From positions 3,414 to 67,413 of the forward strand of contig JBAWZF010000006.1 of NCBI GenBank assembly GCA_037143175.1: a stretch of DNA of 64,000 nt, read 5' to 3'. Both the position numbers and the translations under genes were made by a program. Source of the stretch: a bacterium (lineage in GTDB: Bacteria; Verrucomicrobiota; Kiritimatiellia; CAIKKV01; CAITUY01). The notes beneath the pieces are model-generated. The model searched no databases and was not told the origin of the DNA. It saw only the letters and a program-made list of their open reading frames with translations. Shown here one piece after another: positions 42,445-57,384 of the stretch (the first letter of the stretch is position 1; every line of letters begins with the position of its first letter).

Positions 42445-42490
42445 TGACGAGGCGCGCCGGACCACCAACGGGGCGCCTCGTTTTTTTAGT
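42445..42490 (+). terminator. rho-independent terminator after rpsA (gaggcgcgccgg...ggcgcctcg followed by a T7 run)
   Basis: GC-rich hairpin immediately followed by TTTTTTT, 25 nt after the rpsA stop. Confidence 0.7.
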
Positions 42491-42503
42491 GGGAGTGTTT
42501 TCC

Positions 42504-43772: not shown

Positions 43773-44266
43773 CCAGATTGGCGGATTTGACGTATCGTTT
43801 CCCGGTAAAGCTCCACGGATATCCGTAAATGATGTTCTGTGACCAGTTCATCAACGGCTTTGATCGCCTCCGATTGGGAAATAAATTTGGCTCGTGCAGC
43901 CCTGATCATGATGCCCAGTGTGCCTGCAACGGGAAGTCCTTCGGCTGAGGCGATGCGTCGTACCAGGCTGTCGTCGGTTAGGATGAGCGATGGGCGGTGT
44001 TTTTTCGCCAGCGTCAGGACATGTCGGTCAGCCATGCTCAAGGCCGAGGCCGGGAAGAGTGAACTCTGTACGGTCTCGATACGACAATGTTTGAGGAATT
44101 CCCGAATGCGCTGCTGTTCATTAAATGGGATAGTATTTTGGGTGAGTTCGCGCCAAACGCTTTTAGGCAACAAAACCGTTCCGGGGAATACATTTCGGAT
44201 GAGCGCTAACTGATCCAATTTGGCCAGAAATATTACCGGGCAGGCGTCCGCCACAACAACATTCAT
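43769..44266 (-). CDS. PIN-domain protein of the DUF3368 family (putative toxin)
   Basis: 165 aa, N-terminal MNVVVADACPVIFLAKLDQLAL... PIN-like acidic residues. Overlaps the upstream UPF0175 gene by 4 nt. Confidence 0.6.
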   Translation of the reverse strand: MNVVVADACPVIFLAKLDQLALIRNVFPGTVLLPKSVWRELTQNTIPFNEQQRIREFLKHCRIETVQSSLFPASALSMADRHVLTLAKKHRPSLILTDDSLVRRIASAEGLPVAGTLGIMIRAARAKFISQSEAIKAVDELVTEHHLRISVELYRETIRQIRQSG

Positions 44267-44559
44267 GAGGCCAATTCCCTGCGAAGATCATCCGCCGTAA
44301 GATTTAGTTGCAGGCCGTTCTCCGGGAAACGGGTCAACAGGTCGTAGAGACTCATGTCGGCCATTTCCGCCGCGCGGGATAGTGTGACTTCACCACGGCG
44401 GTACGCAGCACATGCGGTTTCGCAGCGATAATCGGCATACCCCCGGCGCAGAAGACGTTTAAGCAACGATGACCGATCCAAGCCATCTTGGGCAGCCGCC
44501 TGATCCAGTAATTTGACTTCATCGGCATTCAGGCGAAGGGATAATGTCATAGTTTTCAT
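44263..44559 (-). CDS. UPF0175-family putative antitoxin
   Basis: 98 aa, ...LDQAAAQDGLDRSSLLKRLLRRG... Its pairing with a DUF3368 PIN protein is a known two-gene module. Confidence 0.55.
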   Translation of the reverse strand: MKTMTLSLRLNADEVKLLDQAAAQDGLDRSSLLKRLLRRGYADYRCETACAAYRRGEVTLSRAAEMADMSLYDLLTRFPENGLQLNLTADDLRRELAS

Positions 44560-44705
44560 TATGTATACGATTTCCTTATCTGTACACAGTTAATCAAAAT
44601 GGGCTTCATATGACAAGGAATCAATGTCATGGACGGATCCTGTCTAGTCAAGGTGGTCTAATCCATTTGCCCGAGCTAGTACGAGTGTGCTAGGTTTCTG
44701 CCAAC

Positions 44706-44880
44706 ATGAGCGGAAATATTTACCAGGAACTGACGCAGGCCTTTAACGCGGGACGGCTGCGAGCCATTCTGAGCAGTGGGCAGGCCGTCGTGATGCATCG
44801 GCTGGCCGTCATGAGCAAGGATGGCGATTGGATTCTGGGCGAGACGCCCGCTGTCCTTGTCTCACGTGCCGAAGGCCGGT
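44706..44880 (+). pseudogene. truncated gene fragment (N-terminal about 58 codons of an unidentified protein, then out-of-frame sequence)
   Basis: MSGNIYQELTQAFNAGRLRAILSSGQAVVMHRLAVMSKDGDWILGETPAVLVSRAEG reads like a real N-terminus. Beyond it the frame becomes Pro/Arg-rich nonsense overlapping other frames. Confidence 0.35.
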
Positions 44881-44992
44881 TGCCATTTCAAGACTGTTTG
44901 CTAATGCCGCCGAGACGTCGGCATCCACCTCGGAGGCCAAAGGCGCAAATTCGACACCTGGTGGGATATCCATTGACGGCGTGGACACGGGT

Positions 44993-45394
44993 TCAGGGAC
45001 GACCACCGGTACCGGGTCGGGTGTCGGCATTGGATCCATTACGGGCGATTCGTGATCTGCGCCGCTGCCTGCCCGCAATGCTTCGCATAGCGATGCAGGC
45101 GGGGGGATAGCGGCTACTACAACTTGAATTGGCACCAGACTGATATCCCGTCCCTAAGCGGACCTTCATCATGGCTACCCCTGCGCCTTGCCAGAGAACA
45201 AAGACCGGGCGTTGATTGGCGATGGCTGTCGAGACTGGCGCATAGACACTCGGACAGCAAATGATCCCCAAGCACTCCAGGATCAATCTGGCAATACGCT
45301 GACGCCCCGCCTCGGCTTCGGGTGGGAGTGTCACCACGACCAGTTTCAGGCCGCCACGAGCAAGAACCGGCTCCAGCTCCGGGATGAGTGACAA
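44993..45394 (-). pseudogene. degraded copy of the repeat-encoded gene (the homolog of 46523..46999 loses frame after ...GAGVAMMK)
   Basis: Shares ...SLIPELEPVLARGGLKLVVVTLPPEAEAGRQRIARLILECLGIICCPSVYAPVSTAIANQRPVFVLWQGAGVAMMK with the downstream copy. Its continuation is found in a different frame (ORF 44809..45135). Confidence 0.4.
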
Positions 45395-45410
45395 AGTGGA
45401 GGTGGGGCTA
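45163..45410. repeat. 248-bp direct repeat, copy A (100% identical to 46675..46922)
   Basis: Base-by-base comparison of the two stretches shows identity over 248 bp. Confidence 0.9.
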
Positions 45411-45552
45411 ACGGTAACTGTTTGTCTGTCCCGCCGCGCAATTCACGTACGGCAGAATATCGTTCTGCGAAACAATATGATAATCAATTCCATTGACTCG
45501 GAACGAGGTGGGTAGCATTATTTATGCAGATTTAATGAAAAGCTAAATTGCA

Positions 45553-45789
45553 ATGCCGACTGTACTAATTATAGGGCCATATCGGTTTTTCTTTTACGCA
45601 AGCGATCACGGGGAACCCCCTCATGTTCATATTGAGCGGGAGGACTGTGTGGCAAAGTTTTGGATTAATCCAGTTCGTTTAGAGCGTAGTGGGGGATTCA
45701 GTGGGCATGAGATATCGAAATTATGTCGCATGGTTGCTATACATGAATCGCTTCTGATGGAGAAATGGAATGAATACTTCAGCGCTTGA
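45553..45789 (+). CDS. DUF4160-family small protein
   Basis: MPTVLIIGPYRFFFYASDHGEPPHVHIERED... is the DUF4160 signature. Confidence 0.7.
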   Translation: MPTVLIIGPYRFFFYASDHGEPPHVHIEREDCVAKFWINPVRLERSGGFSGHEISKLCRMVAIHESLLMEKWNEYFSA

Positions 45790-46225
45790 GTTGCCGGGTT
45801 TGACCGCGGAAAAAGTTGCCGTAAATGACGAGAGCCTGATCGTGGATCTTTCTGATGGTCGTGTATTAAGCGTGCCGTTGGCGTGGTATCCCCGGTTATT
45901 ACATGGGACCCGGGCGGAGCTTCATCGGTGGCGGTTGATTGGGCGTGGATCAGGGATCCATTGGCCCGATTTGGATGAGGATATAAGCGTTGATGGGCTT
46001 TTGCGTGGTGCGAAATCTGGGGAGAGCCAAGCCTCCCTCTCGAAATGGTTGGTTGCCCGTCGGGATGTGGGGCCCATGGGGAAGAGGCGAAATATCCGGT
46101 TATCTGCAAATGAGTATACTCCTGCGAGCGCAGCAAAAGGTGTGCGTCGAGTGGCCGAGGGGTCGGCAGTTTATGGGAAGCCCTACAGGAAACCCAGATT
46201 GACAAAATCTGGAACAGTGCAATGA
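45770..46225 (+). CDS. DUF2442-family protein
   Basis: ...VAVNDESLIVDLSDGRVLSVPLAWYPRLLHGTRAELHRWRLIGRGSGIHWPDLDEDISVDGLL is DUF2442-like. Overlaps the DUF4160 gene (a typical two-gene module). Confidence 0.65.
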   Translation: MNTSALELPGLTAEKVAVNDESLIVDLSDGRVLSVPLAWYPRLLHGTRAELHRWRLIGRGSGIHWPDLDEDISVDGLLRGAKSGESQASLSKWLVARRDVGPMGKRRNIRLSANEYTPASAAKGVRRVAEGSAVYGKPYRKPRLTKSGTVQ

Positions 46226-46522
46226 GGCCAAAATTCCCGTCTGCGGCGGCGTTATCAGTTGATGGGTTATCAAGATGCTGAGGCGCCAAATGAAAGTCCA
46301 GCCGGAGAATCCTTAACGTCTTTTCCCGTTGTAGTAGCCGCTGTCCCCAGGCCCGCCCTCTGCCTCCTCGCCCCTTGCGGGAGAGGATTGAGGTGAGGGG
46401 TTTATAGCAACCGGTTCGTCCCTCTCAGTGCGCTCTGGTCAGGGACTGTCACTTTAGTCTGCGCAATACTGGTAAAGCGCATTGTGCAAAGAGTTAAGCC
46501 GATGATTTTGAGGATAGATTTT

Positions 46523-46999
46523 CTATCCCAGAGGGCTCTGCTCCGAAGGTGGCATCACCGGCGAGAGTGGTGGTTCGGTCATCGTAGGCGGTGTCACAAC
46601 GGGAGGCGGCACGAAGGCCGGTGCGGACACCGGTTCGACTTCTACTGGCGTAACATTTGACGAAAGGCGGAGTGCCTTCATCATGGCTACCCCTGCGCCT
46701 TGCCAGAGAACAAAGACCGGGCGTTGATTGGCGATGGCTGTCGAGACTGGCGCATAGACACTCGGACAGCAAATGATCCCCAAGCACTCCAGGATCAATC
46801 TGGCAATACGCTGACGCCCCGCCTCGGCTTCGGGTGGGAGTGTCACCACGACCAGTTTCAGGCCGCCACGAGCAAGAACCGGCTCCAGCTCCGGGATGAG
46901 TGACAAAGTGGAGGTGGGGCTATGCGTTGAAATCACCAGGCTGATCTCCTTAGATCCCGGAGTTGCAGACAAAGCCGGGGCTATGGCTAGTTTGGCCAT
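46523..46999 (-). CDS. hypothetical protein encoded across repeat copy B (Pro-rich C-terminus); family not recognised
   Basis: 158-aa ORF containing the same conserved segment as the degraded copy upstream. Confidence 0.4.
   Translation of the reverse strand: MAKLAIAPALSATPGSKEISLVISTHSPTSTLSLIPELEPVLARGGLKLVVVTLPPEAEAGRQRIARLILECLGIICCPSVYAPVSTAIANQRPVFVLWQGAGVAMMKALRLSSNVTPVEVEPVSAPAFVPPPVVTPPTMTEPPLSPVMPPSEQSPLG
46675..46922. repeat. 248-bp direct repeat, copy B
   Basis: Identical to 45163..45410. Confidence 0.9.
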
Positions 47000-47016
47000 C
47001 TTGGTAAACCGTATAT

Positions 47017-47490
47017 TTGCCGCCCGCCGATATCCCTGCGGATAATTTGTCTGTCCCTAAAGGCTCCCTGGAACTGGCCACGGCACCTGAGAAACGTCTC
47101 GCTCAACTCACGTTGGCGGATGAGATGACCAGGACTGTACACGGGGCGGAGGGGCTCGCCATAGCGCAACGCGCCAGCCAGGTGTTGTTCGGTGGCTCAA
47201 TGGAGGGGATGAAGGCGGATGATCTGATCAAAGTGTTTGCGAATGTGCCCTCGCGTGAGTTATCCTTGGATTCAGTTCGGGATGCCAGCTTCCTGGATGT
47301 GGCAGTGGTGTCAGGGCTCTGCAAGAGCAAGGGCGACGCGCGGCGGCTTGTGAACGAAGGCGGTTTTTACATCAATAACATCCGGATTACGGAACCTGCG
47401 GGGAAGATCACTGGCGACATGTTGGTGGATGGGCGTGTGCTGGTCATGCGGGCGGGAAAAAAGAACTATTGCCTGGTCAAGGTCGTCTGA
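47017..47490 (+). pseudogene. displaced 3-prime remnant of tyrS (C-terminal about 140 codons including the S4 domain; roughly 75% identical in protein to the live tyrS C-terminus)
   Basis: ...APEKRLAQLTLADEMTRTVHGAEGLAIAQRASQVLFGGSMEGMKADDLIKVFANVPSRELSLDSV...LCKSKGDARRLVNEGGFYINNIRI...GRVLVMRAGKKNYCLVKVV aligns residue for residue with TyrS 43370..43772. It has no N-terminal catalytic domain and no proper start. Confidence 0.8.
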
Positions 47491-47515: not shown

Positions 47516-48655
47516 ATGAGTACAATAAGATATTTTTCAACGGTATGGGCCGGTGTTGCGTTGCTTGCTTTATCAATGATTACGGCACGCGCGGAAGACA
47601 ATGGTGCCGAACATCCCTGGACAGTTAGTTTTGGACTTGGCAAACTCGACACTGAGGGCGATGCGATTGTCAATGACGCCAGCTTTTGCACGCTGTCGTT
47701 GGATTATTCCCTGTCGCACAGGTTCTCAATCGAAGGATCATTGACCTGGGTGCCACGGTTAACCGGAAATACTTTCACTGATTACTCATCCGGTTCACCG
47801 GAAACAGTTGATCGTCTGGAAGCCGAAACCGGCGCATCTGATACCTGGGCGGTGGGCGCCGCCGTTGATGTTTTATATCATATTTCCAGCGGGCAGAGGG
47901 TGGACCCGTATCTGTCCCTCGGTTATGGCGTTCTCCGCTATGGCGAAGAGATCGGCGAAAATGACTGTTACGATACGACACCGCGGGCCGGTGCCGGCCT
48001 GTTTTATCACCTCTCTGACTCAGTGGCCGTTCGTGCTGATTATGGCTATTACCTGAATGGAGACTGGCGGAAGAGTAATTCAAATTCAAAATTCGGGATC
48101 GGTCTTGCCTGGACCTTTGGTGCCAACAAGCCAGTGGTTTTGCCGCAATCGGTCGCAAGGCCGGGTGTTGAGGCATCCGTGATCCCCCCTGCGGGCGGCG
48201 AGGCCACCACGCGGGTGGCTGCACCAGTGGTTGTCGATTCGAAAAACAAATCTGACGATCGCGAGAAGTATGTATTGCACATAGAATTTGCCGAGGGCAG
48301 TTCAAAACTCATGGCGCAATACTATGAACATCTGGATGTGATCGGAACAATCTTGAAAGACACGCCGGACGTCACTGTGCGAATCGAAGGGCATTGCGAA
48401 CAGCTTGCATCCTCTTCCGAGCGTCAGGCTAAAAGCCTGACACAAAAGCGGGCCGAGGCTATCCGTGATTATTTGGCAGGCGACAAATGGAATATCGCCA
48501 AAAAACGCATGGAAGCCGTAGGGTGTGGATTTAGCATGCCGATTGAAAAACCGGATTTGATCAACGGCAACCTGGCAAATCGCCGGATTGAAATCTACAT
48601 CAACCGTCCTGCCGCATCCGCGAAGCAGGGGACTGTCACTCCGGCAGACAAATAA
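47516..48655 (+). CDS. OmpA-family outer-membrane protein (N-terminal beta-barrel plus C-terminal OmpA/Pal-like peptidoglycan-binding domain)
   Basis: Signal peptide MSTIRYFSTVWAGVALLALSMITARA. Alternating barrel strands. C-terminal ...TVRIEGHCEQLASSSERQAKSLTQKRAEAIRDYL...NRRIEIYI is an OmpA_C-like domain. Confidence 0.75.
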   Translation: MSTIRYFSTVWAGVALLALSMITARAEDNGAEHPWTVSFGLGKLDTEGDAIVNDASFCTLSLDYSLSHRFSIEGSLTWVPRLTGNTFTDYSSGSPETVDRLEAETGASDTWAVGAAVDVLYHISSGQRVDPYLSLGYGVLRYGEEIGENDCYDTTPRAGAGLFYHLSDSVAVRADYGYYLNGDWRKSNSNSKFGIGLAWTFGANKPVVLPQSVARPGVEASVIPPAGGEATTRVAAPVVVDSKNKSDDREKYVLHIEFAEGSSKLMAQYYEHLDVIGTILKDTPDVTVRIEGHCEQLASSSERQAKSLTQKRAEAIRDYLAGDKWNIAKKRMEAVGCGFSMPIEKPDLINGNLANRRIEIYINRPAASAKQGTVTPADK

Positions 48656-48662
48656 AAGTCTG

Positions 48663-51600
48663 TCACTGTTTGTAGAACGGCAGGTAGCGGTAGTATACTT
48701 CCAGGCATAATGCCGCCGTGGCGGTGGTGTACACCCGCCCGCCACGTTCGCCCAGCACGCACACCGGATCCCAACTGCCCTTGGCGGCACCTTTCATAAC
48801 CTGCCCGGTCAGCAGCGCCTGGACCAGGGCCTTGTTCCATGTGACAAACTCAGGGGCCCCCGACATGTGCAGCGCAAGCGTGGTGTAATACCAGAAATAC
48901 AGGTTCACGGTATGGTCCTTCGGCGACCACACCGGTAAACGGGCCATGAGATAGGGGATGGTCTCGCCCTGGCCGCGCATGCGGGTATTTTCTTTCATCA
49001 TTAACTGGCAGAACCAGCCTTCGGCTGTCATGGTGGGCGTTCCTGCATGCCCCGGCATATAGGCATAGAGCCCCTCTTCGTTTCCGCGTCGAACACAATC
49101 CAGCCATTTTTCAACCCACTGGAAATGCTGCGGGGGGATCTTGAAGCCGGCAATCATGGCGCTCTTCAGGGCCAGCACCTGCCAACCAGTCACGGACGTG
49201 TCACTGTCTTTCCGTGGTTCATATCGCCAACCAGCCCCGGGATTTTGTGCCTTCAAGATGAAGTCTACCGCCTTTTTAATGGGTTCATTCAGGCGTTGAT
49301 CACCCGTCATGGAATAGGATTCGCACAGGGCCGCAGTGGCCATTGCCTGGCCATACATCTGTCCTTCCCGTTGCAGGTTGCCGTCTTCCTTCTGTCCGTC
49401 GACAAGCCAGTTCAGTGCCTTGCGCACCGACTCCTTGTGCTCGCCCTTCACATGCGTATACCCGGCGCCCAGATAGGATAGCAGGCACAAGCCGGTGAGC
49501 GCCACATCATCATCACTGCGGTCACCACCTCCACCACAACGGGAGATGGTTTTGAATCCATCCACATCCCAGCGACCATCATCGCTTTGTGCCTTGGCTA
49601 GCCAGATGAGTGCCTCTTCGACAGCCTGTTCGGTTCTGACGGATCCGCCTAGCTCACGGATGATGTCCTTGCGTTTTTCCGGAGTTCTGAGTTTGTACAG
49701 CGCTTTTTCTGGAACGGTCTTCGGCACGGAAGCCAATTCATCCGATATCAGCAACCGTGGCGTCTCCTTGCCACTGAACCCTAACACTGGCTGAGCGGAA
49801 TGCCCCCTCTGTCCATCGCCCCCGGCCTTCAAATCAATATCCATCCTTGTATGCGGCCTGCCTGCGGAAGAAGACATACTTGCGGAATCAAAATCCATCA
49901 ATCCGCCACCGGCTGGTGCGCTATCCGGCATGAATTGTCCGCCCGCCTTGGTGACAATAATCTCTGCCGCCGTCTTTGGTCCCGTGGAAACGGTTGCGCT
50001 GTCACCTTGGCCCATGCCTTCCGCGGCCAGTTCCCTGCCGGTTTCGCCAAATGACAAGCGCACGTCATTTCCGACCGCAGATCCGGATCTTATCAATGAT
50101 ACTGAATCCTGCCCGATGCCGCTCCCCTTCGTGCCGCGGGGTTGTGCCGCAGGGAGGGCGTCCACATCCGCCAGGCTTACGTTGATGTTGCCTCCCATCG
50201 ACGAGGTCGGCAGTGAAAGCTGCGACCGTGAGCCCTGTTCGCCCGTCTGCGAAATTCCAGCATCAGCCTTTTCAGGCTTGAGGCCGATGCGGGCGAGTGC
50301 CGACTGAATTTCATTGCCACTGGAAAGTGTGCCTGTGTCCGCCGTGGCCATTGCCGGGGCCAGCCCGGCAAGGATATCAGCCACTTTTGCGCCAGCCCCT
50401 GCAGCGGAGCCCGGATTCTCAATTTTTGTTGCATCAACATCAGCCGCCATAGAGCCGGACAAGCCTCCTATCAGTACTTCAGTTGCTTTGCCAGCTAGCG
50501 AGTTGTGTGTGCCTGCCGCCCCGGAAAGAACGCGCCCAGCGTTCAGTCGTTGCGAAAAAGCCGCATCGTCAGGCTGTCCCCAACTTCCGGCGGCCTGGCT
50601 CTTGCCGGTTGTCAAGGCATACCGCAGTTTGTCAATTCCGCGGAGAGATCTCACCTCTTCGCTGGCACTACCCGATGAAATGGTCGCCGCCGGTGCCGCG
50701 GCGCCACCCATATCCACCATTGCTATTGCCATTGAGCGCGAAACAGCCGATGTGAGTTCACTCGTGTCTCCTGCGGGGCGCGTGGTAGTCTGTGCCTGTG
50801 CTCCCGGAACGTCAAAGGGGGTGCGCTCACCGGCGCCGGCTGTGTGATTTTCGGATGTTGTCAAATCGACTGAGTGTCGTGCCACCCATCCACTGTTTAC
50901 GTCCGGAATGTCTCCCGTGGTCAATCCGCTCTTTACAGCTGCAATAGATTCAAAAGCATCACGACCATTCAATTGTGCTGGCATGGACGATTGTGTGCGC
51001 TCAACCTGAATTCCCGCTGCGGATCCACCTACATCCACGAGGGGGTGGGTGCCGGTTTCACCCATTGTTACCAGTAACCGGTCCTGTAGGGCGAGGCGGT
51101 CAGCGCCCGCGGGAGCTGTCTCTTTTGTGGAAGTGACTCTAAATTTGGTATTCTCAGCCGCCGGACGTCTTTCCAGCGTAATTGACGCTTTGGACCGGTT
51201 CAGTGGGGCCTCTTGCATCGCGGATGTTTGTCCGCTCCGTAAGGTTCTGACCTCTTTTTGGGTGTCAAAGACGGGTTCAGCTGCCAGCGCAGCGGCAGCT
51301 GGGCCAACCACGGGGCGTTGCGTGTCGGTCATCCGGACTGGTGCGCTCAGGAATTGTGCATGACTCGTTTCGCGTTGTTGGGGCGTTGTATCCACCCGCG
51401 GTTGTGATTTCCGGGTTATGGGGGTGGCATCGGACAGGCTGGCAGCGGCCACTCTGGCCATTGTGCCTTTCAACTCGCGCGACAACATTGCCGCCGCCGG
51501 CGCATCGGGTGCCGATGTTCCCTGGTGAGCGACATCCATGGCGTGTGATGGCTCACCTGTACGCTTTATTTCCATCCGGCCGGGTGCCTCTGCATCCTGG

Positions 51601-52523
51601 ATTTGTTTCGCCTTCAAGTTCAATGCTTCGATTTTACCGGCGCTACCGCTGGTCCGCAGTATATCGTCCGTTTTTCGCCCGCCGTGCTGTATGGGTTCAA
51701 TTTTTACGGTATCCCGCGTGAGTGTCCGCTGCATTTCATTCCTAGTCACATTCCGGTGGTCATTAATTGGAGCGGCCAGGGTATCGATCTGCAGTTTTTG
51801 GGGCATCTGCCCAGGCAGTTCCCGGGGCGATGGTTTCACTGGAGCGGTTTCGCCGGCATTCTTGATCTGGGCGAGGGCGACCAGTTTAGTCTTGTTGATA
51901 TCGGGAATCGTCTCTTCAGTCCTGGTGAGCGCTTCCTGAAGCTGCGCTTTGGCCCGTGAAGCCTCAACGGGCTTCATTTTTTCCTGCATGGGCTCCGGTG
52001 GCGGCCCGTGCTTCAGTTCCAGCATTAGCTGCGCCGCCCTGGCTTCAATGGGATCCACCAGTGATTCCTTTTTGACGGATAGTTCCCGGAGATCGGGCTT
52101 TGTGGTTGCGGTAAACTGTGCCCGCATATCCTGGCTTAACTGGCTTTCCGTCATCGGGGGGACACTCGATGACAACTCCAACCTGCCTGCGGTCATGTCA
52201 ACTTCGGGCACCGGGGTGCTCAAGACAAACAGACCGAACAACGAGGCCGTCAACATGTGTGCCACGATGCTGATGAACATGCCGAGCGCGACAAAGCCAG
52301 AGGTCTGACGACGCCCGGCGGCCAGCAGTGAAATCACCAGAAGACCGACAGCTGTCAGGATGGCCGCCAACAGGGGGAAGCCGAATCGCGCCAGGACATA
52401 ATGCCAGTATTGCGCCCAGCTGACAGGCGCCAGAAAACTGGTCGCGACAGCGGCGACAAGGCCTGCGGCAATCAGCACCCACATCCAGGGCTGCAACGCT
52501 GATCCTCGTACGTTACCCTTCAA
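48663..52523 (-). CDS. 1286-aa polytopic membrane protein: three N-terminal TM helices, an about 850-aa low-complexity Ala/Thr/Ser/Gly/Pro-rich region, and a C-terminal prenyltransferase/squalene-cyclase-type alpha/alpha-toroid repeat domain. It occupies the TolA/TonB position after exbB-exbD.
   Basis: One uninterrupted ORF. N-terminal hydrophobic segments (WMWVLIAAGLVAAVATSF, FGFPLLAAILTAVGLLVISLLAA, FVALGMFISIVAHMLTASLFGLFVL). C-terminal repeats with DDGRW / GWRYEP / QNPGAGW-type motifs typical of Prenyltrans/SQHop_cyclase repeats. It starts 32 nt after the exbD stop. Confidence 0.7.
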   Translation of the reverse strand: MKGNVRGSALQPWMWVLIAAGLVAAVATSFLAPVSWAQYWHYVLARFGFPLLAAILTAVGLLVISLLAAGRRQTSGFVALGMFISIVAHMLTASLFGLFVLSTPVPEVDMTAGRLELSSSVPPMTESQLSQDMRAQFTATTKPDLRELSVKKESLVDPIEARAAQLMLELKHGPPPEPMQEKMKPVEASRAKAQLQEALTRTEETIPDINKTKLVALAQIKNAGETAPVKPSPRELPGQMPQKLQIDTLAAPINDHRNVTRNEMQRTLTRDTVKIEPIQHGGRKTDDILRTSGSAGKIEALNLKAKQIQDAEAPGRMEIKRTGEPSHAMDVAHQGTSAPDAPAAAMLSRELKGTMARVAAASLSDATPITRKSQPRVDTTPQQRETSHAQFLSAPVRMTDTQRPVVGPAAAALAAEPVFDTQKEVRTLRSGQTSAMQEAPLNRSKASITLERRPAAENTKFRVTSTKETAPAGADRLALQDRLLVTMGETGTHPLVDVGGSAAGIQVERTQSSMPAQLNGRDAFESIAAVKSGLTTGDIPDVNSGWVARHSVDLTTSENHTAGAGERTPFDVPGAQAQTTTRPAGDTSELTSAVSRSMAIAMVDMGGAAAPAATISSGSASEEVRSLRGIDKLRYALTTGKSQAAGSWGQPDDAAFSQRLNAGRVLSGAAGTHNSLAGKATEVLIGGLSGSMAADVDATKIENPGSAAGAGAKVADILAGLAPAMATADTGTLSSGNEIQSALARIGLKPEKADAGISQTGEQGSRSQLSLPTSSMGGNINVSLADVDALPAAQPRGTKGSGIGQDSVSLIRSGSAVGNDVRLSFGETGRELAAEGMGQGDSATVSTGPKTAAEIIVTKAGGQFMPDSAPAGGGLMDFDSASMSSSAGRPHTRMDIDLKAGGDGQRGHSAQPVLGFSGKETPRLLISDELASVPKTVPEKALYKLRTPEKRKDIIRELGGSVRTEQAVEEALIWLAKAQSDDGRWDVDGFKTISRCGGGGDRSDDDVALTGLCLLSYLGAGYTHVKGEHKESVRKALNWLVDGQKEDGNLQREGQMYGQAMATAALCESYSMTGDQRLNEPIKKAVDFILKAQNPGAGWRYEPRKDSDTSVTGWQVLALKSAMIAGFKIPPQHFQWVEKWLDCVRRGNEEGLYAYMPGHAGTPTMTAEGWFCQLMMKENTRMRGQGETIPYLMARLPVWSPKDHTVNLYFWYYTTLALHMSGAPEFVTWNKALVQALLTGQVMKGAAKGSWDPVCVLGERGGRVYTTATAALCLEVYYRYLPFYKQ

Positions 52524-52555
52524 TGATCATTTTCCGTTCGCGAAATAGCTTCACC

Positions 52556-52969
52556 TTATTTGTCGCCTTGGTTGGTCGTGAGATAGGTATGTTTCACGCT
52601 GTGTTTTTCGCACAGGTCCAGAATATTCACGGCGAACTGGAGTACTGCGCGTTTGTCGCCACGGATGACCACGGCCTGATCGGGATTCTCTGATTTTGCC
52701 ATGCCGATAAGCCGGTCAACCTCCTCAGTCTGTCGTACTTGTCCGCCAATGACGAATTGTCCATCCTGGCCAACATTGACCACCATTTCCCGTGGCATGG
52801 CCATCATGGGCCTGGCATTGCGGCTGTCCGGCGGTTTCACGCGGACATCCCGCTCAATATCAGCGAACTTCGTGGCCATCAGGAAAAAAACCAGGAGGAA
52901 CATCATCGTGTCGATCATGGGGATCACGTTGATGCCGAAAAAATCATGTTCGGGAATTTTTATTCGCAT
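52556..52969 (-). CDS. exbD: ExbD/TolR-family biopolymer transport protein
   Basis: 137 aa, single TM (INVIPMIDTMMFLLVFFLM) plus periplasmic domain. Directly follows exbB. Confidence 0.8.
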   Translation of the reverse strand: MRIKIPEHDFFGINVIPMIDTMMFLLVFFLMATKFADIERDVRVKPPDSRNARPMMAMPREMVVNVGQDGQFVIGGQVRQTEEVDRLIGMAKSENPDQAVVIRGDKRAVLQFAVNILDLCEKHSVKHTYLTTNQGDK

Positions 52970-52983
52970 CGTGGGGCCCAGTC

Positions 52984-53787
52984 TCAGCTTTTGGAAGCCA
53001 GTTTTTCAGCCAGTTCCGTCGCGGTATAGTCAATTTCGCTCACCAGCCGCTCTACCCGTTCCTGGAAGAAGAAATACATGACCAGGGCCGCGATGGCGAT
53101 CGTCAACCCCACTGCCGTTGCCACAAGGGCCTCATAAATGCCCCCGGCAAGGAGTTCCGTCCGGCCCAGCGCGTCTTCCGATGCGGCCACGGTCATGAAC
53201 GTGCGGATAATACCTGTGGCCGTCCCCAGCAACCCGAGCAGCGGAGCCACACTCGCCACGGCGGACAGCACACGGTTATTCCGCTGGAGCTTGGAGACCT
53301 CTTTGGCGGCCGTGTCCTCCATGGCCTTTTCCACTTCCATGATGGGGCGGTTTGCACGGCGTATGCCAGCCGCCACGATGCGTGCGAGGGGACTTGTCGC
53401 ACCTTCCAGTTGTGCCTGCAAGGCCTGGGCATTGAAGGTGTCCCCGGGTTGGTCCAAGGCTGTGCGCAGTTGCAGCACGGTTTGTGGTGGCGACACCACC
53501 CGGTTGCGAAGGGTGAAGAGGCGTTCAAAAGCGAATCCCAGCGCAAGAATGCTGCAGAGATAGAGCGGGTACATGACAGGTCCGCCTTTTTGCAGGAGCT
53601 GAATCATGGTCAGGTCACGCATGTCAGGGGCGGTGCCTGTTGTTTCCTTGCTCGTCACTACCGTTCCGGTTTGTTGCCCCATGCCGGTCGCTGCTCGTGG
53701 CGCTGGCTGTTTATCGGCCTGCGCCATGGTCACGCCCGCACACAACATAATGATACCCATCACACAAACAAACCTGTACTTGGTCAT
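52984..53787 (-). CDS. exbB: MotA/TolQ/ExbB-family proton channel
   Basis: ...MYPLYLCSILALGFAFERLFTLR..., ...SAVASVAPLLGLLGTATGIIRTF..., conserved three-TM core. Has an N-terminal signal-like extension. Confidence 0.8.
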   Translation of the reverse strand: MTKYRFVCVMGIIMLCAGVTMAQADKQPAPRAATGMGQQTGTVVTSKETTGTAPDMRDLTMIQLLQKGGPVMYPLYLCSILALGFAFERLFTLRNRVVSPPQTVLQLRTALDQPGDTFNAQALQAQLEGATSPLARIVAAGIRRANRPIMEVEKAMEDTAAKEVSKLQRNNRVLSAVASVAPLLGLLGTATGIIRTFMTVAASEDALGRTELLAGGIYEALVATAVGLTIAIAALVMYFFFQERVERLVSEIDYTATELAEKLASKS

Positions 53788-53832
53788 GAAACACTCCTCT
53801 TGTAGTTATCGAGATTCGGACACGTCAATGGG

Positions 53833-56800
53833 TCATTTTGCGCTACGCCGTTCCGTTGCGGGTTTGGCCCATTTCGTGTCGCTGAAGTTTTTGATAATAT
53901 CGTTGTATGAGTTCAATGCTTGCGCCTTATCGCCCAGCGCCTCATAACATTTGGCGCTCTCAAACATGGCCCCCGCCACCCATTCGCGATGTTCACGGTA
54001 GAGGGCAATGACCCGCAGGTAAGCCATGATGGCAGCTTTATAATCGCTCTTGGCCTGCGATATCTGACCGATACAGAACTGTGCTTCCGCACCGGTTTCA
54101 GTCTTGGTGCGCTTAGTCACTTCCAGGAAGCTCTCCTCGGCGTCCGGGTATTTACCGAGGTTGAACCGGGCTTTCCCCAGCAGGAAATGGGCCTGGACGA
54201 GGATGCGATCATCGGGACTTTTCCTGATCAGGGTTTCGAGCGGATTGATCGCCTCCGCATACTTGTCAGTGATGATGAGGCAATTGGCCAGCCCCAGGCA
54301 GGCATCGGGCAAGAATTCATGTGTCGCCGACCGCTTGTCGACAATGAACTGGCGGAAGCGCTCAATAGCCAGCGCGGTCTGTCCGTTCCTGGCATGGGCC
54401 TGCGCCGCCTGCAGAAGGGCATCAGGGAACAGTTCGTTATCAGGGAAATCCTTCACCATGCAGTCGAATTCCACGGCCGCCTTCGCATAGCGGTCCATCA
54501 GCCAATAGCACCAGCCCATGCGGAAACGGGCCTTGTCCGCGAGGCGTTTGTCCTTGGAGGTGTCCAGCACCTTGCCGTAAAGGTCTAGAGCCCCGTCGAG
54601 TCGCCTGGTGCGGGCTTCAGGTTTTTCGCCGGCGGCTTCCTCCGGCTTTATTTTGTATGTGGCCTCGGCCAGGTAGAAATAGGCGTCTGCGGCTAGCGCA
54701 TCCTTCGGGAATATATCGGCGAGCTGCCGGAACACACGGAGGGCGTCATTATCCTTTCCTGCCTGCCGCCAGGACCAGGCCTGCTCATACAGGATGCGGA
54801 CCCTGTCATCTGCCGCAGGGTAGTTTTCATCCAGCGTCTTGTATGTTGCCGCTGCTTCCGCCCATTTCTGCTGTTCCTGCTGGCAGGTGCCAACCGCTAA
54901 CAGGGCTGTGCGCGCGAGATCGTGTTTCGGGAAGGCGGTGAGGACTGCGGTGGCGGCCTGTTCCCCCTCAGACCATTTTTTCATTTTGATGAGGCTTCTG
55001 GCCTTGCGATATAACGCCTGCGCGGTCAGGTCCGCAGCGGGGTATTTCGCGGCCATTTTGTCGAATGCCTGCACCGCCTCATTCCATTGTTCCCGGTCGT
55101 AGTAACACAGGCCGATGCCGAACAGCGCGTAGGGGGTGAGCTCATCCGCTTTTTCGCGACTGGCCACCAGTGTATATTTATCCACCGCCTTCTCATAGGC
55201 TTTCTGGTCGTAGTAGCACTCCGCAAGTTGATATTGAACCTGGGGGAGCAATTCACTGGCGGGATAGTCTTTGAGGAAACGTTCCAGGTGTTTGGCGGCG
55301 CCAGCCTTTTTGTCCTGCTTCATGTCGGCCACTGCCAGTTTCAGGAGGGCATCATCACCGAACCGGCTATGCTCCGGGGTATCGAGGTAGGCGGTCAGGG
55401 CCTTGCCCACCAGATCGTATTTTGCCATTTCGAACAGGCAGAGACCCTCAAGATAAAGCATCTCGGAGGCAATCGAAGCGCCGGCCGCCTTCGCGTCGAT
55501 GATCTTGAGTTCATCGAGTGCCTCCTTGTTACGCTTTTCGTAGTGGTGCACCCAGGCCAGCCGGTAGTGGGCGCGGGCCACGCGATCCAATGCCTTGTCC
55601 CCTTTCTGCAGGAACTCCTGGTAACGTTCAGCAGCGCGGGCGTATTGCTTGAGCAGGAACCGGTTTTCACCGCTCAGAAACAGCACTGGAGGAAGCAGAT
55701 CGTTCTTGCCGAACTTATCGCGGAAGGAGTCGCACAGGGCGTCGGAATCGGCATACTTATCGGCGCGATGCAGTGCGGCACAGGCTGAATACAGGGCGCG
55801 CGGCGCCTGGTCGTTTTTCTCAAAGGCCGCGGCATACTCCTTGAAGGCCCCGGCCGCCTCCTCAAATTTATTCCTTGCCAGCCGGGCATCCGCCAGGCCG
55901 AGGTGCATGTCGCCTGCCATGGATGACTGCGGAAAATCATGCAGGGAATCGCTCAGTACCTTTTCGGCCTCTTCAGCCCTGTCAGATTTCAGCAGGCTCA
56001 TCGCGACCCAGTACGAAGCCTCGTCAGCCAATTCCTTTTTGTTTTTCCGCACGGGGTCAAGCCGCTCAATGGCATTCTTGTAGTCGCCGGCCTCAAAGAG
56101 GGCGGTGCCGGAGTACAGCCGCGCCTTGGCCGCCTGTGGGCTCTGTGGAAAACGGCTGGCCAGCTGTTCAAATGCGACGGCAGCCTCTTTCAGTTTGCCA
56201 GCCTTGTAGAGGGCCAGTCCGCGTTCATACCCGGCGGCCTCGGAAAATTTTCCACTTCCCTCCGTGACCGATTCATAGGCCGCTGCGGCCTTAGCATAGG
56301 CATCCTGCCTGTAGAGTGACTGGGCCAGGCGGAAACGCGCCTCCTCATGCAGTTCGCTTTTGGGATACTTCGCGAGGAACCGCTCGAACGATTTCTGCGC
56401 CTCGCTGAAACGATTCTGATTGAACTGCGCAAAGGCATAATTGAAGAGGCTGCGTTCGATGAGGTTCAGAAAGGCCTCACCAGCCTTGATCCCGGCGGCA
56501 TCAAGCTTTTGCAGCATGGCCTTCGTTTCCGGTGTGCTGTCTCCCTCATACTTGTCGACGTACAGTTTTAGCAGGTCTTCAGCTTCCTTGTTCTTCTCCA
56601 TGCTGATTAGGCAGGCGGCCTGGCGGGCCATGGCCCAATCAGCAAGGTAGTGAGTTGCATATTTTTCGCGGATCTGCGCGAACAGTGCAACCGCATCGTT
56701 GAATCTGCCAAGCGCCACATAGGTCTGGCCGAGTTGGAACAGCATTTCGGCGGATTGCGGAAAGTTGGGACTGTCGGTGCGGACCTGCTCATACGCTTTG

Positions 56801-57072
56801 GCGGCCTGTTCAAACTTGTCGGTATGGAACAGCGCCTGGGCCAGGCCAAACTGCGCATCAGCCTTGTGTGCATGGTCAGGATAATTCTTCAGGAACGCAT
56901 TATAGGAATCCGCAGCCATGTCATACTTGCCGCTGTTATACAGCCAGACGGCAAAATTGTAGTCATCCACCGCTTTGGTGGCCGTCTTGTCCATGGCGGC
57001 CGTGAGTGACATTACGGCGCCGAGGCTGACAAGGCAAAACAGGGCCGCAATCTTTTTTGTGACAAAATGCAT
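53833..57072 (-). CDS. 1078-aa TPR-repeat protein with N-terminal signal/anchor and a C-terminal CpoB/YbgF-like TPR module
   Basis: Start at MHFVTKKIAALFCLVSLGAVMSLTAA. Dozens of TPR units (A..Y.....Y..A). The C-terminal end resembles the Tol-Pal-associated YbgF/CpoB TPR domain. It is the first gene of the exbB-exbD-giant-protein operon. Confidence 0.7.
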   Translation of the reverse strand: MHFVTKKIAALFCLVSLGAVMSLTAAMDKTATKAVDDYNFAVWLYNSGKYDMAADSYNAFLKNYPDHAHKADAQFGLAQALFHTDKFEQAAKAYEQVRTDSPNFPQSAEMLFQLGQTYVALGRFNDAVALFAQIREKYATHYLADWAMARQAACLISMEKNKEAEDLLKLYVDKYEGDSTPETKAMLQKLDAAGIKAGEAFLNLIERSLFNYAFAQFNQNRFSEAQKSFERFLAKYPKSELHEEARFRLAQSLYRQDAYAKAAAAYESVTEGSGKFSEAAGYERGLALYKAGKLKEAAVAFEQLASRFPQSPQAAKARLYSGTALFEAGDYKNAIERLDPVRKNKKELADEASYWVAMSLLKSDRAEEAEKVLSDSLHDFPQSSMAGDMHLGLADARLARNKFEEAAGAFKEYAAAFEKNDQAPRALYSACAALHRADKYADSDALCDSFRDKFGKNDLLPPVLFLSGENRFLLKQYARAAERYQEFLQKGDKALDRVARAHYRLAWVHHYEKRNKEALDELKIIDAKAAGASIASEMLYLEGLCLFEMAKYDLVGKALTAYLDTPEHSRFGDDALLKLAVADMKQDKKAGAAKHLERFLKDYPASELLPQVQYQLAECYYDQKAYEKAVDKYTLVASREKADELTPYALFGIGLCYYDREQWNEAVQAFDKMAAKYPAADLTAQALYRKARSLIKMKKWSEGEQAATAVLTAFPKHDLARTALLAVGTCQQEQQKWAEAAATYKTLDENYPAADDRVRILYEQAWSWRQAGKDNDALRVFRQLADIFPKDALAADAYFYLAEATYKIKPEEAAGEKPEARTRRLDGALDLYGKVLDTSKDKRLADKARFRMGWCYWLMDRYAKAAVEFDCMVKDFPDNELFPDALLQAAQAHARNGQTALAIERFRQFIVDKRSATHEFLPDACLGLANCLIITDKYAEAINPLETLIRKSPDDRILVQAHFLLGKARFNLGKYPDAEESFLEVTKRTKTETGAEAQFCIGQISQAKSDYKAAIMAYLRVIALYREHREWVAGAMFESAKCYEALGDKAQALNSYNDIIKNFSDTKWAKPATERRSAK

Positions 57073-57384
57073 GGCGATTTTCTCCGAAGACGCACGGAAC
57101 GAACGGTTTTGCACACGATCCATTCGTGCATGGAATTATATGGATAAGAAGTCTCTTTTCGGACGGCACGGACACTTGCCCGTTGTAACCCCCTTTGAAA
57201 CAACAATTTCCTAAGGAATGCTGTCAAAATAGAAATGTAAAAGCAAGCCCAAGGACGAGTTTGTCAAACCATAATATTTGATTTTTGACCGGGCTTGGGC
57301 GGTTGAAGTCGTTCGGCGTGTGCTGCAACAACTGGAGCGGGAGATGCGATGAATCTCCTTTTCGCGCGTACACGTCTCCGCGAT

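Follow-up and report, generated by a model that had tools for sequence, protein, structure and literature searches.

The window, a stretch of 64,000 nucleotides, encodes a 1286-aa toroid-headed protein whose gene closes a conserved four-gene putative operon of Planctomycetes-type (PVC) bacteria. With its ExbB/ExbD motor, this operon seems to encode a so far undescribed variety of the systems that supply energy to the bacterial outer membrane. The four genes probably form one module that acts as a Ton/Tol machine with a different head and most likely serves, in an energy-driven manner analogous to Tol-Pal, to tether or maintain the outer envelope (probability of about 0.6). The core of the original prediction, which had been made from the sequence alone, holds, and its interpretation is partly supported overall.

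Organization of the locus

The minus strand carries four tightly packed genes in the ORF listing, for a TPR protein, ExbB/TolQ, ExbD/TolR and the giant protein, and an OmpA-family gene converges on them from the plus strand.

53833..57072, minus strand: periplasmic TPR protein, first gene of the module (TPR_6, TPR_16 and TPR_2 matches, E 1e-52 to 1e-74)
52984..53787, minus strand: ExbB/TolQ-type proton-channel subunit, 267 aa (PF01618, E 8e-30)
52556..52969, minus strand: ExbD/TolR-type subunit, 137 aa (PF02472, E 2e-20)
48663..52523, minus strand: giant protein in the TolA/TonB position, 1286 aa, putative force transducer (ORF listing; follows ExbD)
48643..48664, no strand assigned: hairpin between the two convergent stop codons (terminator-like site in a pattern scan; consensus match only)
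47516..48655, plus strand: OmpA-family protein, convergent (OMP_b-brl, E 2e-16; OmpA, E 3e-13)

All five open reading frames were confirmed where the original prediction had placed them. The gaps within the module are 45, 14 and 32 nt, the last of which separates ExbD from the giant gene. The stop codons of the giant and OmpA-family genes are 7 nt apart, and the hairpin between them is a possible shared terminator. The start codon of the giant gene is uncertain and could be TTG 52523, TTG 52496 (GAGGA 6 nt upstream) or ATG 52484. The TPR protein is about 1079 aa long from the Met at 57072, which precedes a signal-peptide-like segment; the ORF reaches 57123, giving 1096 aa from the first ATG. 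Glycoside hydrolases are abundant in the window.

The toroid head

The giant protein ends in the following domain.

48666..49706, minus strand: C-terminal (alpha/alpha)6 toroid head with QW-type repeats, residues about 940-1286 (profile match, predicted fold)

The C-terminal ~350 aa match SQHop_cyclase_C at 24.4 bits, just below the threshold of 26.1, and are predicted with confidence as a 12-helix toroid (pLDDT 89.2, pTM 0.90). Judged from this model, the head is an alpha/alpha toroid of the terpene-cyclase/prenyltransferase superfamily, as had been proposed. Six-hairpin glycosidases and epimerases score nearly as high as terpene cyclases against it, and the toroid family comprises about 9,500 clusters at 50% identity.

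Among 30 aligned heads, the catalytic signature DxDD is absent from 29, and DDxxD and CGEQ are absent from all 30; the toroid of the giant protein itself has none of the three. The head also scores far under the enzyme cutoffs (SHC, 23 bits against 431; pectate lyase, 18.5 against 190), and what it shares in sequence with squalene-hopene cyclase falls in the QW repeats rather than around the active site. Acidic residues are nevertheless kept in at least 26 of the 30 heads (E46, D63, D87, D128, E149, D156, D189, E249 and E356). Three of them (E46, D189 and E356) show no variation at all, and conservation is also seen at E249, C253 and H300. Invariant aromatics stand at the starts of the inner helices, and the mouth of the toroid holds invariant acidic and aromatic residues.

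These residues would also suit an enzyme, which counts against a force transducer. The toroid could be an active periplasmic enzyme that the motor and tether position or gate, with no structural pulling; examples are a glycan hydrolase, lyase or epimerase with peptidoglycan or polysaccharide as its substrate, or an enzyme that processes polyprenyl lipids. The many glycoside hydrolases in the window are consistent with this reading. However, the missing signatures of the fold, the scores below all enzyme family cutoffs and the location of the cyclase similarity argue against catalysis, making it the best of the alternatives and still unlikely.

The TPR protein

The TPR protein is made of TPR units along its whole length; the YbgF-type TPR model TIGR02795 matches it at 364 bits over 12 stretches, the best of which is residues 53-161. 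The CpoB/YbgF likeness that had been placed at the C-terminus is therefore genuine as a repeat type but not limited to that end. The CpoB model covers only the TPR part and reaches 136 bits, short of its cutoff of 383. Of the 49 related loci with enough flank, 29 have a homologous TPR gene (~1050 aa) upstream of ExbB, and this large periplasmic protein is probably a scaffold.

The component types (motor, TPR proteins, OmpA-like barrel) are also those of an engine for surface motility or adhesion like Agl-Glt of Myxococcus, in which a TolQR-type motor with TPR and OmpA-like proteins would drive the movement of an adhesin or a surface structure instead of maintaining the envelope. A gliding role has been proposed for the vWA-headed transducers by the authors who described them (PMC12204202), and the TPR protein GltC weakly matches the TPR protein of the window. 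Its 33 bits compare with a cutoff of 450, however, and other Glt-like genes are not conserved around the module, where only four genes recur. Since the module also occurs in very diverse PVC lineages, an engine of this kind is improbable.

The motor and the membrane end of the giant protein

The ExbB/TolQ protein has a signal-like N-terminal segment and an extension, and it scores 83 bits against the TIGR tolQ model and 63 bits against exbB, both below cutoff. When aligned to E. coli TolQ and ExbB from the PDB, it keeps the Thr in 'GLLGTATGI' and the Glu and Thr in 'GIYEALVATAVGL'. Asp20 of ExbD/TolR corresponds to Asp25 of E. coli ExbD and Asp23 of TolR. By alignment, then, the motor residues (ExbB Thr/Glu/Thr and ExbD Asp) are intact.

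Four features precede the head in the giant protein.

52218..52523, minus strand: N-terminal membrane region, residues 1-102, three predicted TM helices (hydropathy and AlphaFold)
52257..52271, minus strand: Ser-x3-His motif S85-I-V-A-H89 in the last TM helix (alignment of relatives; comparison with E. coli TolA and TonB)
52161..52187, minus strand: candidate 'motor box' GRLELSSSV, residues 113-121 (short alternating segment ~25 residues past His89)
49719..52208, minus strand: disordered periplasmic linker, residues about 106-935, ~730-830 aa (composition, low identity, pLDDT)

The three TM helices and long low-complexity linker of the original prediction are borne out by hydropathy, composition and AlphaFold. 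Hydropathy peaks at residues 9-27, 51-69 and 83-101, and the AlphaFold helices span 10-30, 36-71 and 76-101. The predicted topology is N-in, C-out after the third helix, since the positive-inside rule would place the RR72-73 loop on the cytoplasmic side. TolA and TonB have one TM helix, and the three found here count against a transducer.

The linker is poor in aromatics (W 0.2%, Y 0.1%, F 1.3%) and contains 41% A/G/S/T. AlphaFold models residues 201-927 at a pLDDT below 50 and nearly devoid of secondary structure, and identity to Victivallales orthologues is 10-20% in the linker against 60-70% in the head. The proximal linker (residues 101-280) is moderately Pro-rich at 10-12% Pro. The whole protein is 3.1 times the length of E. 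coli TolA (421 aa) and 5.4 times that of TonB (239 aa), well short of the tenfold excess that had been claimed.

Across the first 940 aa, 17 full-length relatives (26-68% identity) share no invariant residue except M1, S85 and H89. The E. coli counterparts are SAVLH in TolA and SVCIH in TonB. SxxxH falls within a hydrophobic segment in 38 of the 41 motor-adjacent orthologues without a PD40 propeller, and one further orthologue has AxxxH, which keeps the His. At the Leu and second Ser positions of the classical SHLS motif, the giant protein instead has F96 and V100. SxxxH is absent from the Phycisphaerae orthologues in the same operon (0/14); therefore, the module can exist without it.

In the orthologues, an alternating segment that aligns and is conserved lies 24-28 residues past the His (e.g. 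PPIRVRVIE and RFELAVGL). The spacing equals that of TolA (H22 to SIDAVMVD 48-55) and TonB (H20 to PISVTMV 43-49). The AlphaFold monomer has no strand at residues 113-121, so the candidate motor box is tentative. A profile of the N-terminus retrieves neither TolA nor TonB from the PDB. At the sequence level the front end thus appears TolA/TonB-like in a two-residue motif, its spacing and the gene position. The invariant SxxxH and the motor-box-like segment at TolA/TonB spacing go beyond the evidence of the original prediction.

A true TonB/TolA orthologue, energising TolB-Pal or TonB-dependent transporters and bearing the toroid as an addition peculiar to its lineage, would account for the exbB-exbD-X order, the SxxxH in a TM helix and the Pro content of the proximal linker. 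However, the giant protein has no TonB_C, TolA_bind_tri or TonB_2 match in Pfam or NCBIfam at E 0.01, and the toroid is the end of the protein, leaving no space for a TonB or TolA C-terminal domain, which the head replaces as predicted. The conserved neighbourhood also lacks TolB, a Pal lipoprotein and a TonB-dependent transporter. An ordinary Ton/Tol system is already disfavoured and seems very improbable.

Conservation in PVC genomes

The same TPR-ExbB-ExbD-toroid order is found in Victivallales, Phycisphaerae and Planctomycetia (Pirellulales, Planctomycetaceae and Isosphaeraceae). ExbB and ExbD are directly upstream of the toroid gene in 39 of 64 loci, and in a further 8 there is a single motor gene or a fused call. 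Since the same order is found in dozens of distant genomes, the arrangement is far beyond chance. Conservation of the neighbourhood is confined to the four genes. The gene order is thus conserved in related genomes, the head does reach cyclase models and fold, and no canonical tonB or tolA could fit beside these exbBD genes.

That the toroid protein is an independent membrane protein adjoining exbBD with no functional link is hardly credible: 17 of the 64 loci lack adjacent motor genes (six of these adjoin a MoxR ATPase gene) and an Aeoliella paralogue also lies away from exbBD, but adjacency is kept over phylum-level distances with a median ExbD-to-toroid gap of 3 nt, survives where only ExbD (Gimesia-type loci) or TPR-ExbB (Isosphaeraceae) is left, and the invariant SxxxH would go unexplained.

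The OmpA-family protein has a signal peptide, a beta-barrel, a Pro-rich linker and an OmpA-like peptidoglycan-binding domain. In four related loci (L002, L086, L088 and L089) its orthologue is convergent directly past the toroid gene; L087 has it close by, and in L005 it is found upstream of the TPR gene. This neighbour is conserved in the clade of the window and is likely a partner of the module in that lineage only.

Proposed mechanism

The reading preferred here is a motor-driven tether. For the coupling of the giant protein to the motor, the binding partner of the toroid and the physiological role, we infer the following. ExbB and ExbD would assemble a proton-driven inner-membrane motor, on which the giant protein would dock in the fashion of TolA and TonB, using the last TM helix with Ser85/His89 together with a short strand immediately past the membrane. 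The disordered tether of ~800 residues would span the periplasm, and the toroid head would grip a partner at the peptidoglycan/outer-membrane layer so that motor action pulls it. The TPR protein would be a fixed fourth component, probably a scaffold, and for this lineage the best candidate for an outer-membrane anchor or target is the OmpA-type barrel protein. The modelled build of TM anchor, disordered tether and globular head matches that of TolA and TonB. Links to a peptidoglycan/outer-membrane tether come from the OmpA-type neighbour in the clade and from a PD40 propeller that is fused into the toroid protein in Phycisphaerae orthologues and whose best matches are the 'OmpA-like outer membrane integrity' proteins PorE and CHU_0125.

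Comparison with known systems

The nearest published counterparts are the vWA-headed 'force transducers' found in PVC and other bacteria (Williams-Jones et al. 2025, Mol Biol Evol, PMC12204202). There, the gene after TPR-tolQ-tolR(-tolR) encodes a transducer that carries SHLS and a vWA head. These come from the same superphylum, with Tichowtungia of the Kiritimatiellota as an example. They differ in having a vWA head instead of an (alpha/alpha)6 toroid, a heterologous tolR/exbD pair instead of a single gene, one TM helix instead of three, and a linker of ~100 aa instead of ~800. Since TolA/TonB-like transducers with such heads next to TPR-tolQ-tolR were published in 2025, the idea of an alternative head is not wholly new, and the claim of an undescribed architecture stands only for the toroid head, which appears undescribed: 'toroid', 'prenyl' and 'cyclase' are not mentioned in that paper, and no published description of a toroid-headed transducer was found.

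Compared with class II terpene cyclase-like single-domain proteins and squalene-hopene cyclase (8paj, 8pak, 1gsz and 3sqc), the head has an identity of only 16-18%, nearly always lacks DxDD, and is periplasmic and tethered. The module shares with ExbB-ExbD-TonB the conserved motor Asp and Thr, a transducer gene adjoining exbD, the Ser-x3-His helix and a partly Pro-rich proximal linker. It differs in having no TonB C-terminal domain or nearby TonB-dependent transporter, and in an unrelated head fold.

The E. coli Tol-Pal order is ybgC-tolQ-tolR-tolA-tolB-pal-cpoB. The Q-R-A order is shared, as are the SxxxH helix with an equally spaced motor-box-like strand (tentative here), the YbgF/CpoB-type TPR units and an OmpA/Pal-type peptidoglycan-binding protein next door. 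The mirroring that had been claimed is loose, however, since the TPR protein is encoded first rather than last, is four times the size of CpoB and lacks the CpoB N-terminal part. The module also lacks TolA domain III. TolB is absent from the operon of the window, as noted originally, whereas a PD40 propeller is fused in the Phycisphaerae orthologues only. The neighbour that had been called Pal-like does have the peptidoglycan-binding domain, but it is a barrel on the other strand with no lipobox and not a lipoprotein (Pal model, 33.9 bits against a cutoff of 125).

The PorE/CHU_0125 OmpA-like proteins of Bacteroidota combine TPR, PD40 propeller, carboxypeptidase-regulatory-like and OmpA peptidoglycan-binding domains, which are spread here over the module and its orthologues. 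In PorE/CHU_0125 they sit in one lipoprotein with no motor, whereas here they are divided between proteins and combined with ExbBD and a toroid.

Gene organization of the module

The minus strand at 47.5-57.1 kb carries four consecutive ORFs that form the module, and a plus-strand gene converges on the last of them:

53833..57123, minus strand, TPR protein, 1096 aa from the first ATG
52984..53787, minus strand, ExbB/TolQ homologue, 267 aa
52556..52969, minus strand, ExbD/TolR homologue, 137 aa
48663..52523, minus strand, giant ORF, 1286 aa
47516..48655, plus strand, OmpA-family protein, 379 aa, with a signal peptide, a beta-barrel and an OmpA-like domain

Pfam and NCBIfam bear out the assignments of the module and its neighbour, and the anatomy of the gene set in the original prediction stands. 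The TPR protein has 1079 aa when counted from the Met at 57072, which is followed by a signal-peptide-like segment. The intergenic gaps along the module are 45, 14 and 32 nt, the last of which separates exbD from the giant gene. The start codon of the giant gene is uncertain, with the best Shine-Dalgarno sequence at TTG 52496, and its stop codon lies 7 nt from the end of the OmpA-family gene. A promoter and terminator pattern scan gave promoter matches at shuffle level. The surrounding genes are unrelated to the module: a PIF1-like helicase and UvrA are found upstream, and a small island followed by tyrS and an S1 protein downstream.

Motor subunits and TPR protein

The ExbB homologue belongs to the PF01618 family, with a domain match and with the TM2 Thr and TM3 Glu/Thr kept as in E. 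coli TolQ/ExbB. The ExbD homologue belongs to PF02472, with a domain match and a transmembrane Asp; this residue, Asp20, aligns with D25 of ExbD and D23 of TolR. By score the pair is intermediate between the Tol and Ton types (ExbB homologue, 51 bits to TolQ and 46 bits to ExbB; ExbD homologue, 38.7 bits to ExbD and 22 bits to TolR) and falls under every equivalog cutoff, so that the ExbB homologue is placed at family level and in no subfamily. The N-terminus of the ExbB homologue (52984..53787) is also signal-peptide-like, and ~60 extra aa precede the first channel helix, which resembles the 'long ExbB' forms reported from Serratia (PMC9008036).

The TPR protein is a 1080-aa array of YbgF-type TPR units. 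Its YbgF/CpoB-type similarity, originally placed at the C-terminus, is present but occurs in 12 stretches throughout the protein, the best at 53-161. The CpoB model is matched only at model positions 134-261 of 263 (136 bits; cutoff 383), and the CpoB/YbgF layout of an N-terminal coiled coil with one TPR domain is absent from the protein.

Membrane anchor and linker of the giant protein

Three TM helices are predicted within residues 1-102 of the giant protein. The loop containing RR72-73 suggests an N-in, C-out topology, which would place the remainder in the periplasm. The last TM helix bears S85-IVA-H89, and in an alignment with 16 full-length relatives (26-68% identity) S85 and H89 are the only invariants besides the initiator Met within the first 940 positions. 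An SxxxH occurs in the corresponding hydrophobic segment of 38 of the 41 motor-adjacent orthologues without PD40 (Victivallales, Planctomycetia), and one more has AxxxH with the His retained. E. coli has SAVLH (TolA) and SVCIH (TonB) in the equivalent place; both proteins bind the motor through the Ser and His of this 'SHLS' motif (PMC12204202). The giant protein keeps the Ser-x3-His part of the motif, with the Leu and the second Ser replaced (F96, V100).

About 25 residues past the His, a short segment of alternating character is common to the orthologues (GRLELSSSV in the window, RFELAVGL in Victivallales, PPIRVRVIE in Planctomycetia), at a distance matching that of the motor boxes SIDAVMVD (TolA) and PISVTMV (TonB). 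Since the AlphaFold monomer gives coil with pLDDT <50 across residues 98-122, which contain this segment, its assignment as a motor box is tentative. TolA and TonB were not retrieved from the PDB by a profile of 30 N-terminal segments or by the single TM segment, which gave only chance TM matches; therefore, sequence homology of the anchor cannot be claimed. The N-terminal profile found only 5 frameshift-like fragments in a database of 5.8 billion proteins.

The linker (residues ~106-935) has nearly no aromatics and is rich in A, G, S and T, with a moderate enrichment of Pro confined to its start. Its identity to the nearest orthologues is 10-20%, versus 60-70% for the head. AlphaFold with a shallow 17-sequence alignment gives residues 201-927 a pLDDT <50, with no secondary structure and nothing folded, and the linker has no hidden domain matching Pfam or NCBIfam. 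It is predicted to be a very long disordered tether of about 730-830 aa. We estimate from standard polymer scaling for disordered chains that a relaxed coil of ~830 residues would have an end-to-end distance of ~20 nm. Since this is about one periplasm width, the length of the linker need not be excessive. E. coli TolA has 421 aa and TonB 239 aa, so that the giant protein is longer than them by a factor of 3-5, and not of ten as originally stated.

Toroid head

The AlphaFold model of the head (residues ~940-1286) is a single 12-helix (alpha/alpha)6 toroid with a pLDDT of 89.2 and a pTM of 0.90, as the original prediction had anticipated from sequence. The (alpha/alpha)6 barrel and QW-type repeats are those of the terpenoid cyclase/prenyltransferase toroid superfamily at the level of the fold, and Foldseek gives a ranking in agreement with that of the fold comparison:

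Fold comparison of the head with known structures (score)
Single-domain myxobacterial terpene cyclase (8paj): 24.9
Lanosterol synthase: 24.4
Drimenyl diphosphate synthase: 23.4
Cellobiose 2-epimerase, GH76 mannanases, AprG: 21-22
Prenyltransferase beta subunits: about 18-19
Thioester domains (C4, CD109): about 17.5

The head belongs to this superfamily because the head-family profile aligns to residues 398-591 of squalene-hopene cyclase, its QW-repeat region, with an E-value of 1.5e-14. The expected match to cyclase models was thus obtained for the QW region, but the PF13243 score of 24.4 bits is under its threshold of 26.1. The scores for TIGR01507 (23 bits, cutoff 431) and TIGR01787 (32 bits, cutoff 323) and for all other enzyme families are far under cutoff. 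The DxDD motif is absent from the window head and from 29 of 30 aligned sequences; none of the 30 has DDxxD or CGEQ. Since it lacks DxDD and scores far below threshold, the head is not a class II terpene cyclase; the two-domain beta-gamma build of those enzymes is also absent, the head being a single toroid. On these motifs and scores, membership in the terpene cyclase, prenyltransferase or thioester enzymes was rejected, although ancestry of the fold was not.

The starts of the inner helices, the usual ligand-binding place in toroid proteins, carry invariant acidic and aromatic residues, among them D87, D189, E249, R344, Y138, W195, Y290, Y293, Y294 and Y346. This suggests a conserved putative binding or catalytic mouth. 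Such a mouth, and the near-equal fold likeness to glycosidases and epimerases, would suit a motor-tethered enzyme whose head acts on glycan or lipid, but the known catalytic motifs are all missing, and it is unlikely that the giant protein is such an enzyme.

Relatives and synteny

The head has more than 3,300 relatives in a 90%-clustered database, and 22,049 matches at E 1e-3 and 9,502 at E 1e-30 in a 50%-clustered database. Named matches are from Planctomycetota, Phycisphaerae and Kiritimatiellota and carry no annotation beyond 'prenyltransferase/squalene oxidase repeat-containing' or 'terpene cyclase/mutase family'. Scanning one genome for each species gave 80 loci, the best being from uncultured Victivallales (64% and 59% identity). 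Synteny was scored by comparing six-frame ORFs of the loci with the window proteins using phmmer, followed by HMMs built from the matches.

Genes accompanying the toroid gene (motor genes, 64 loci with at least 1.5 kb upstream; TPR gene, 49 loci with at least 5.2 kb)
ExbB and ExbD directly upstream on the same strand: 39/64
One motor gene or a fused call: 8/64
No motor gene: 17/64
TPR gene of ~1050 aa also present: 29/49

The order exbB-exbD-giant gene, whose conservation the original prediction wanted checked, is kept among PVC relatives, and the four-gene module is real, conserved and widespread. The median gap between ExbD and the toroid gene is 3 nt. All-against-all clustering did not find a fifth conserved gene around the locus.

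Among the eight partial loci, two kinds are informative. Gimesia-type loci retain ExbD and the toroid gene beside unrelated transporters, and Isosphaeraceae, including Singulisphaera, retain TPR-ExbB-toroid with no room for ExbD. At two of the numbered loci, L066 and L076 (Singulisphaera sp. Ch08, 7864..11194), the gap between ExbB and the toroid gene is 82-97 nt, and therefore no ExbD is encoded there. These loci recall the published tolQ-only vWA family, whose transducer may itself insert into the pentamer.

Six of the 17 motor-less loci adjoin a divergent MoxR ATPase gene (L026, L028, L029, L052, L054 and L079). The SxxxH helix is still present in 11 of 24 orthologues without an adjacent motor gene. 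The paralogous toroid proteins that lack exbBD, found at these six loci and at L001, have ~600-780 aa with a TM helix at 140-220 and often SxxxH; P0120, the Aeoliella homologue, belongs to this set. They may share a motor encoded elsewhere. The L001 locus (Aeoliella mucimassa) also has a large VWA-domain protein ~6 kb upstream. The best-scoring family representatives, proteins P0126-P0137, range from 1100 to 2279 aa, and in many of them two or three toroids are matched separately, so multi-toroid giants exist.

In the clade of the window itself (3 TM helices, 1250-1480 aa) an orthologue of the OmpA-type barrel protein recurs. Its gene is convergent directly past the toroid gene in the window and at L002, L086, L088 and L089, lies close by at L087 beyond an IS and toxin-antitoxin insertion, and is divergent and upstream of the TPR gene at L005; it is missing at L091 and none was seen at L004. 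The OmpA-like domain of the window protein (47516..48655) has 'GHCE' in place of the usual 'GHTD' peptidoglycan-contact motif, the L089 orthologue reads 'AYCD' there, and the NRRIEI motif is retained. From these residues, peptidoglycan binding by the neighbour may be modified.

The Phycisphaerae proteins at the operon position of the giant gene have one TM helix and show SxxxH in 0 of 14. Their TM helix is followed by a PD40 beta-propeller (Pfam E 1e-19 to 1e-32), which best matches PorE and CHU_0125 'OmpA-like outer membrane integrity' proteins and only weakly TolB, and then by a linker, the toroid and sometimes a carboxypeptidase-regulatory-like domain. A gene of this type follows ExbD at L007, L009-L014, L016, L017, L021, L023, L025, L040 and L057. 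The L016 protein has an added CarboxypepD_reg domain, and that of L040 seemingly has two toroid domains.

Other features of the window

Between the OmpA gene and tyrS (42315..43772) is an island of ~3.2-3.7 kb at 43769..47490. Features of the island and of the more distant part of the window are:

43769..44266, DUF3368, paired with a UPF0175/RHH gene at 44263..44559
45770..46225, DUF2442 ORF; further ORFs of the island are uncharacterised
47017..47490, island end, second copy of the tyrS 3' end with SYY_C-terminal and S4 domains
10065..11528, phage-integrase-family ORF
12832..14163, minus strand, without a Pfam match, in a long overlapping antisense pair with 12925..14502, plus strand

Since tyrS abuts the OmpA gene directly in L002, a metagenome contig that is 96% identical, it seems that in the window a replacement gene end was brought in or duplicated by an insertion into the 3' end of tyrS. 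Carbohydrate-active genes are abundant at 15536..23241 and 32721..34139 (GH5 cellulase-like, GH106-like, GH18, glucuronate isomerase). This content fits a PVC bacterium of Victivallales or Kiritimatiellota type that degrades polysaccharides.

Proposed function

The main idea of the original prediction, motor genes with a toroid-ended protein in the TolA/TonB position, is upheld by the fold and the synteny. Because its three-domain anatomy fits and its gene sits exactly at the tolA/tonB place, the giant protein is probably a motor-coupled force transducer (probability of roughly 0.6). The ExbB-ExbD motor would act on it through the Ser85/His89 helix and the adjacent strand, and the tether would pass this action on to the toroid head, which would hold a partner within the layer of peptidoglycan and outer membrane. 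In the periplasm the TPR protein would also take part, as an obligatory partner. Judged by the OmpA-type neighbour and by the fusions to a PorE-like propeller, the role is probably envelope tethering or integrity. Against a transducer stand the anchor without detectable sequence homology to TolA/TonB, its three TM helices instead of one, the Phycisphaerae form without SxxxH, and the paralogues without adjacent motor genes.

A bolder and quite speculative reading, spanning Planctomycetota, Lentisphaerota and Kiritimatiellota, is a third, PVC-wide class of proton-driven trans-envelope transducer standing in for Tol-Pal and/or Ton. The head would hold on to peptidoglycan glycan or an OmpA-type tether, or cut it, and the motor would actively hold or remodel the outer membrane over a periplasm of large or variable width, with linkers of 100-1000 residues tuned to envelope geometry. 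That the module replaces Tol-Pal or Ton in these phyla is doubtful.

A gliding or adhesion engine of the Agl-Glt kind is improbable, as other Glt genes are not conserved at the locus. An ordinary Ton or Tol system is very improbable, since the expected C-terminal domain, TolB, Pal and transporter are missing. Chance adjacency of the toroid gene and exbBD is hardly credible in view of the synteny and the invariant motif.

PVC bacteria have unusual envelopes. Planctomycetes have only reduced Tol-Pal sets according to a published survey (PMC8871954), and in some PVC members TolA/TonB is not recognisable (PMC12204202). The toroid module is a concrete and very widespread candidate for the coupling of inner-membrane energy to the PVC outer membrane, and the majority of the best-matching genomic loci are motor-linked. 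Ser85, His89 and ExbD Asp20 are directly testable residues. The module also offers a possible function for a large family of 'prenyltransferase/squalene oxidase repeat-containing' and 'terpene cyclase/mutase family' proteins, whose enzyme-like names probably mislead metabolic annotation.

Comparison with known systems

A Zorya defence reading was rejected, as PADLOC gave only weak generic matches: the ExbB homologue (MotA family) to ZorA with 26.6 bits, the OmpA-family neighbour to ZorB with E 0.0033 and 15.1 bits, and none for the remaining three module proteins.

The likeness to Tol-Pal suggested by the gene order is loose. The window operon and its flanks have no TolB propeller, as originally noted, and PD40 repeats are confined to the Phycisphaerae orthologues of the giant gene. 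The OmpA-type neighbour is not a Pal lipoprotein but a barrel protein with a signal peptide that lacks a lipobox (TIGR02802, 33.9 bits versus 125). Since TolB, a Pal lipoprotein and a true CpoB are all absent, the module is not a Tol-Pal system.

By the three-domain definition of TolA/TonB-type force transducers (PMC12204202), the giant protein fits the scheme with a putative motor-binding helix, a predicted tether across the periplasm and a globular head, and it is likewise encoded beside ExbB/TolQ and ExbD/TolR genes. However, its periplasm-spanning linker is far longer than in known members, and it has three TM helices in contrast to the one of TolA/TonB. The TonB_C/TolA domain III fold, which binds its partner by strand addition, is absent: Pfam and NCBIfam gave no match to it, and the C-terminus is an all-helical toroid, in agreement with the original prediction. 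The giant protein therefore falls outside the TolA and TonB families, although it probably works like their members.

The closest described system is the vWA transducer module of PVC bacteria, which consists of a TPR gene, tolQ, two tolR and an SHLS protein in which a disordered linker leads to a vWA head (Williams-Jones et al. 2025, PMC12204202). The logic is common to both, but the toroid module differs in its toroid head, single ExbD, three TM helices and far longer linker. No VWA match was found in the giant protein with Pfam or NCBIfam, and toroid, prenyl or cyclase domains are not mentioned in PMC12204202. The architecture had been proposed as undescribed; this seems to hold for the toroid head, for which no description was found in openly accessible full texts and no capturing model in NCBIfam release 20 or Pfam, but the vWA-headed counterpart is published. 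The toroid module extends the emerging idea of 5:2 proton motors with interchangeable heads (TonB_C, TolA domain III, vWA and alpha/alpha toroid), and is best described as a toroid-headed variant within the recently recognised alternative TolA/TonB-like force transducers.
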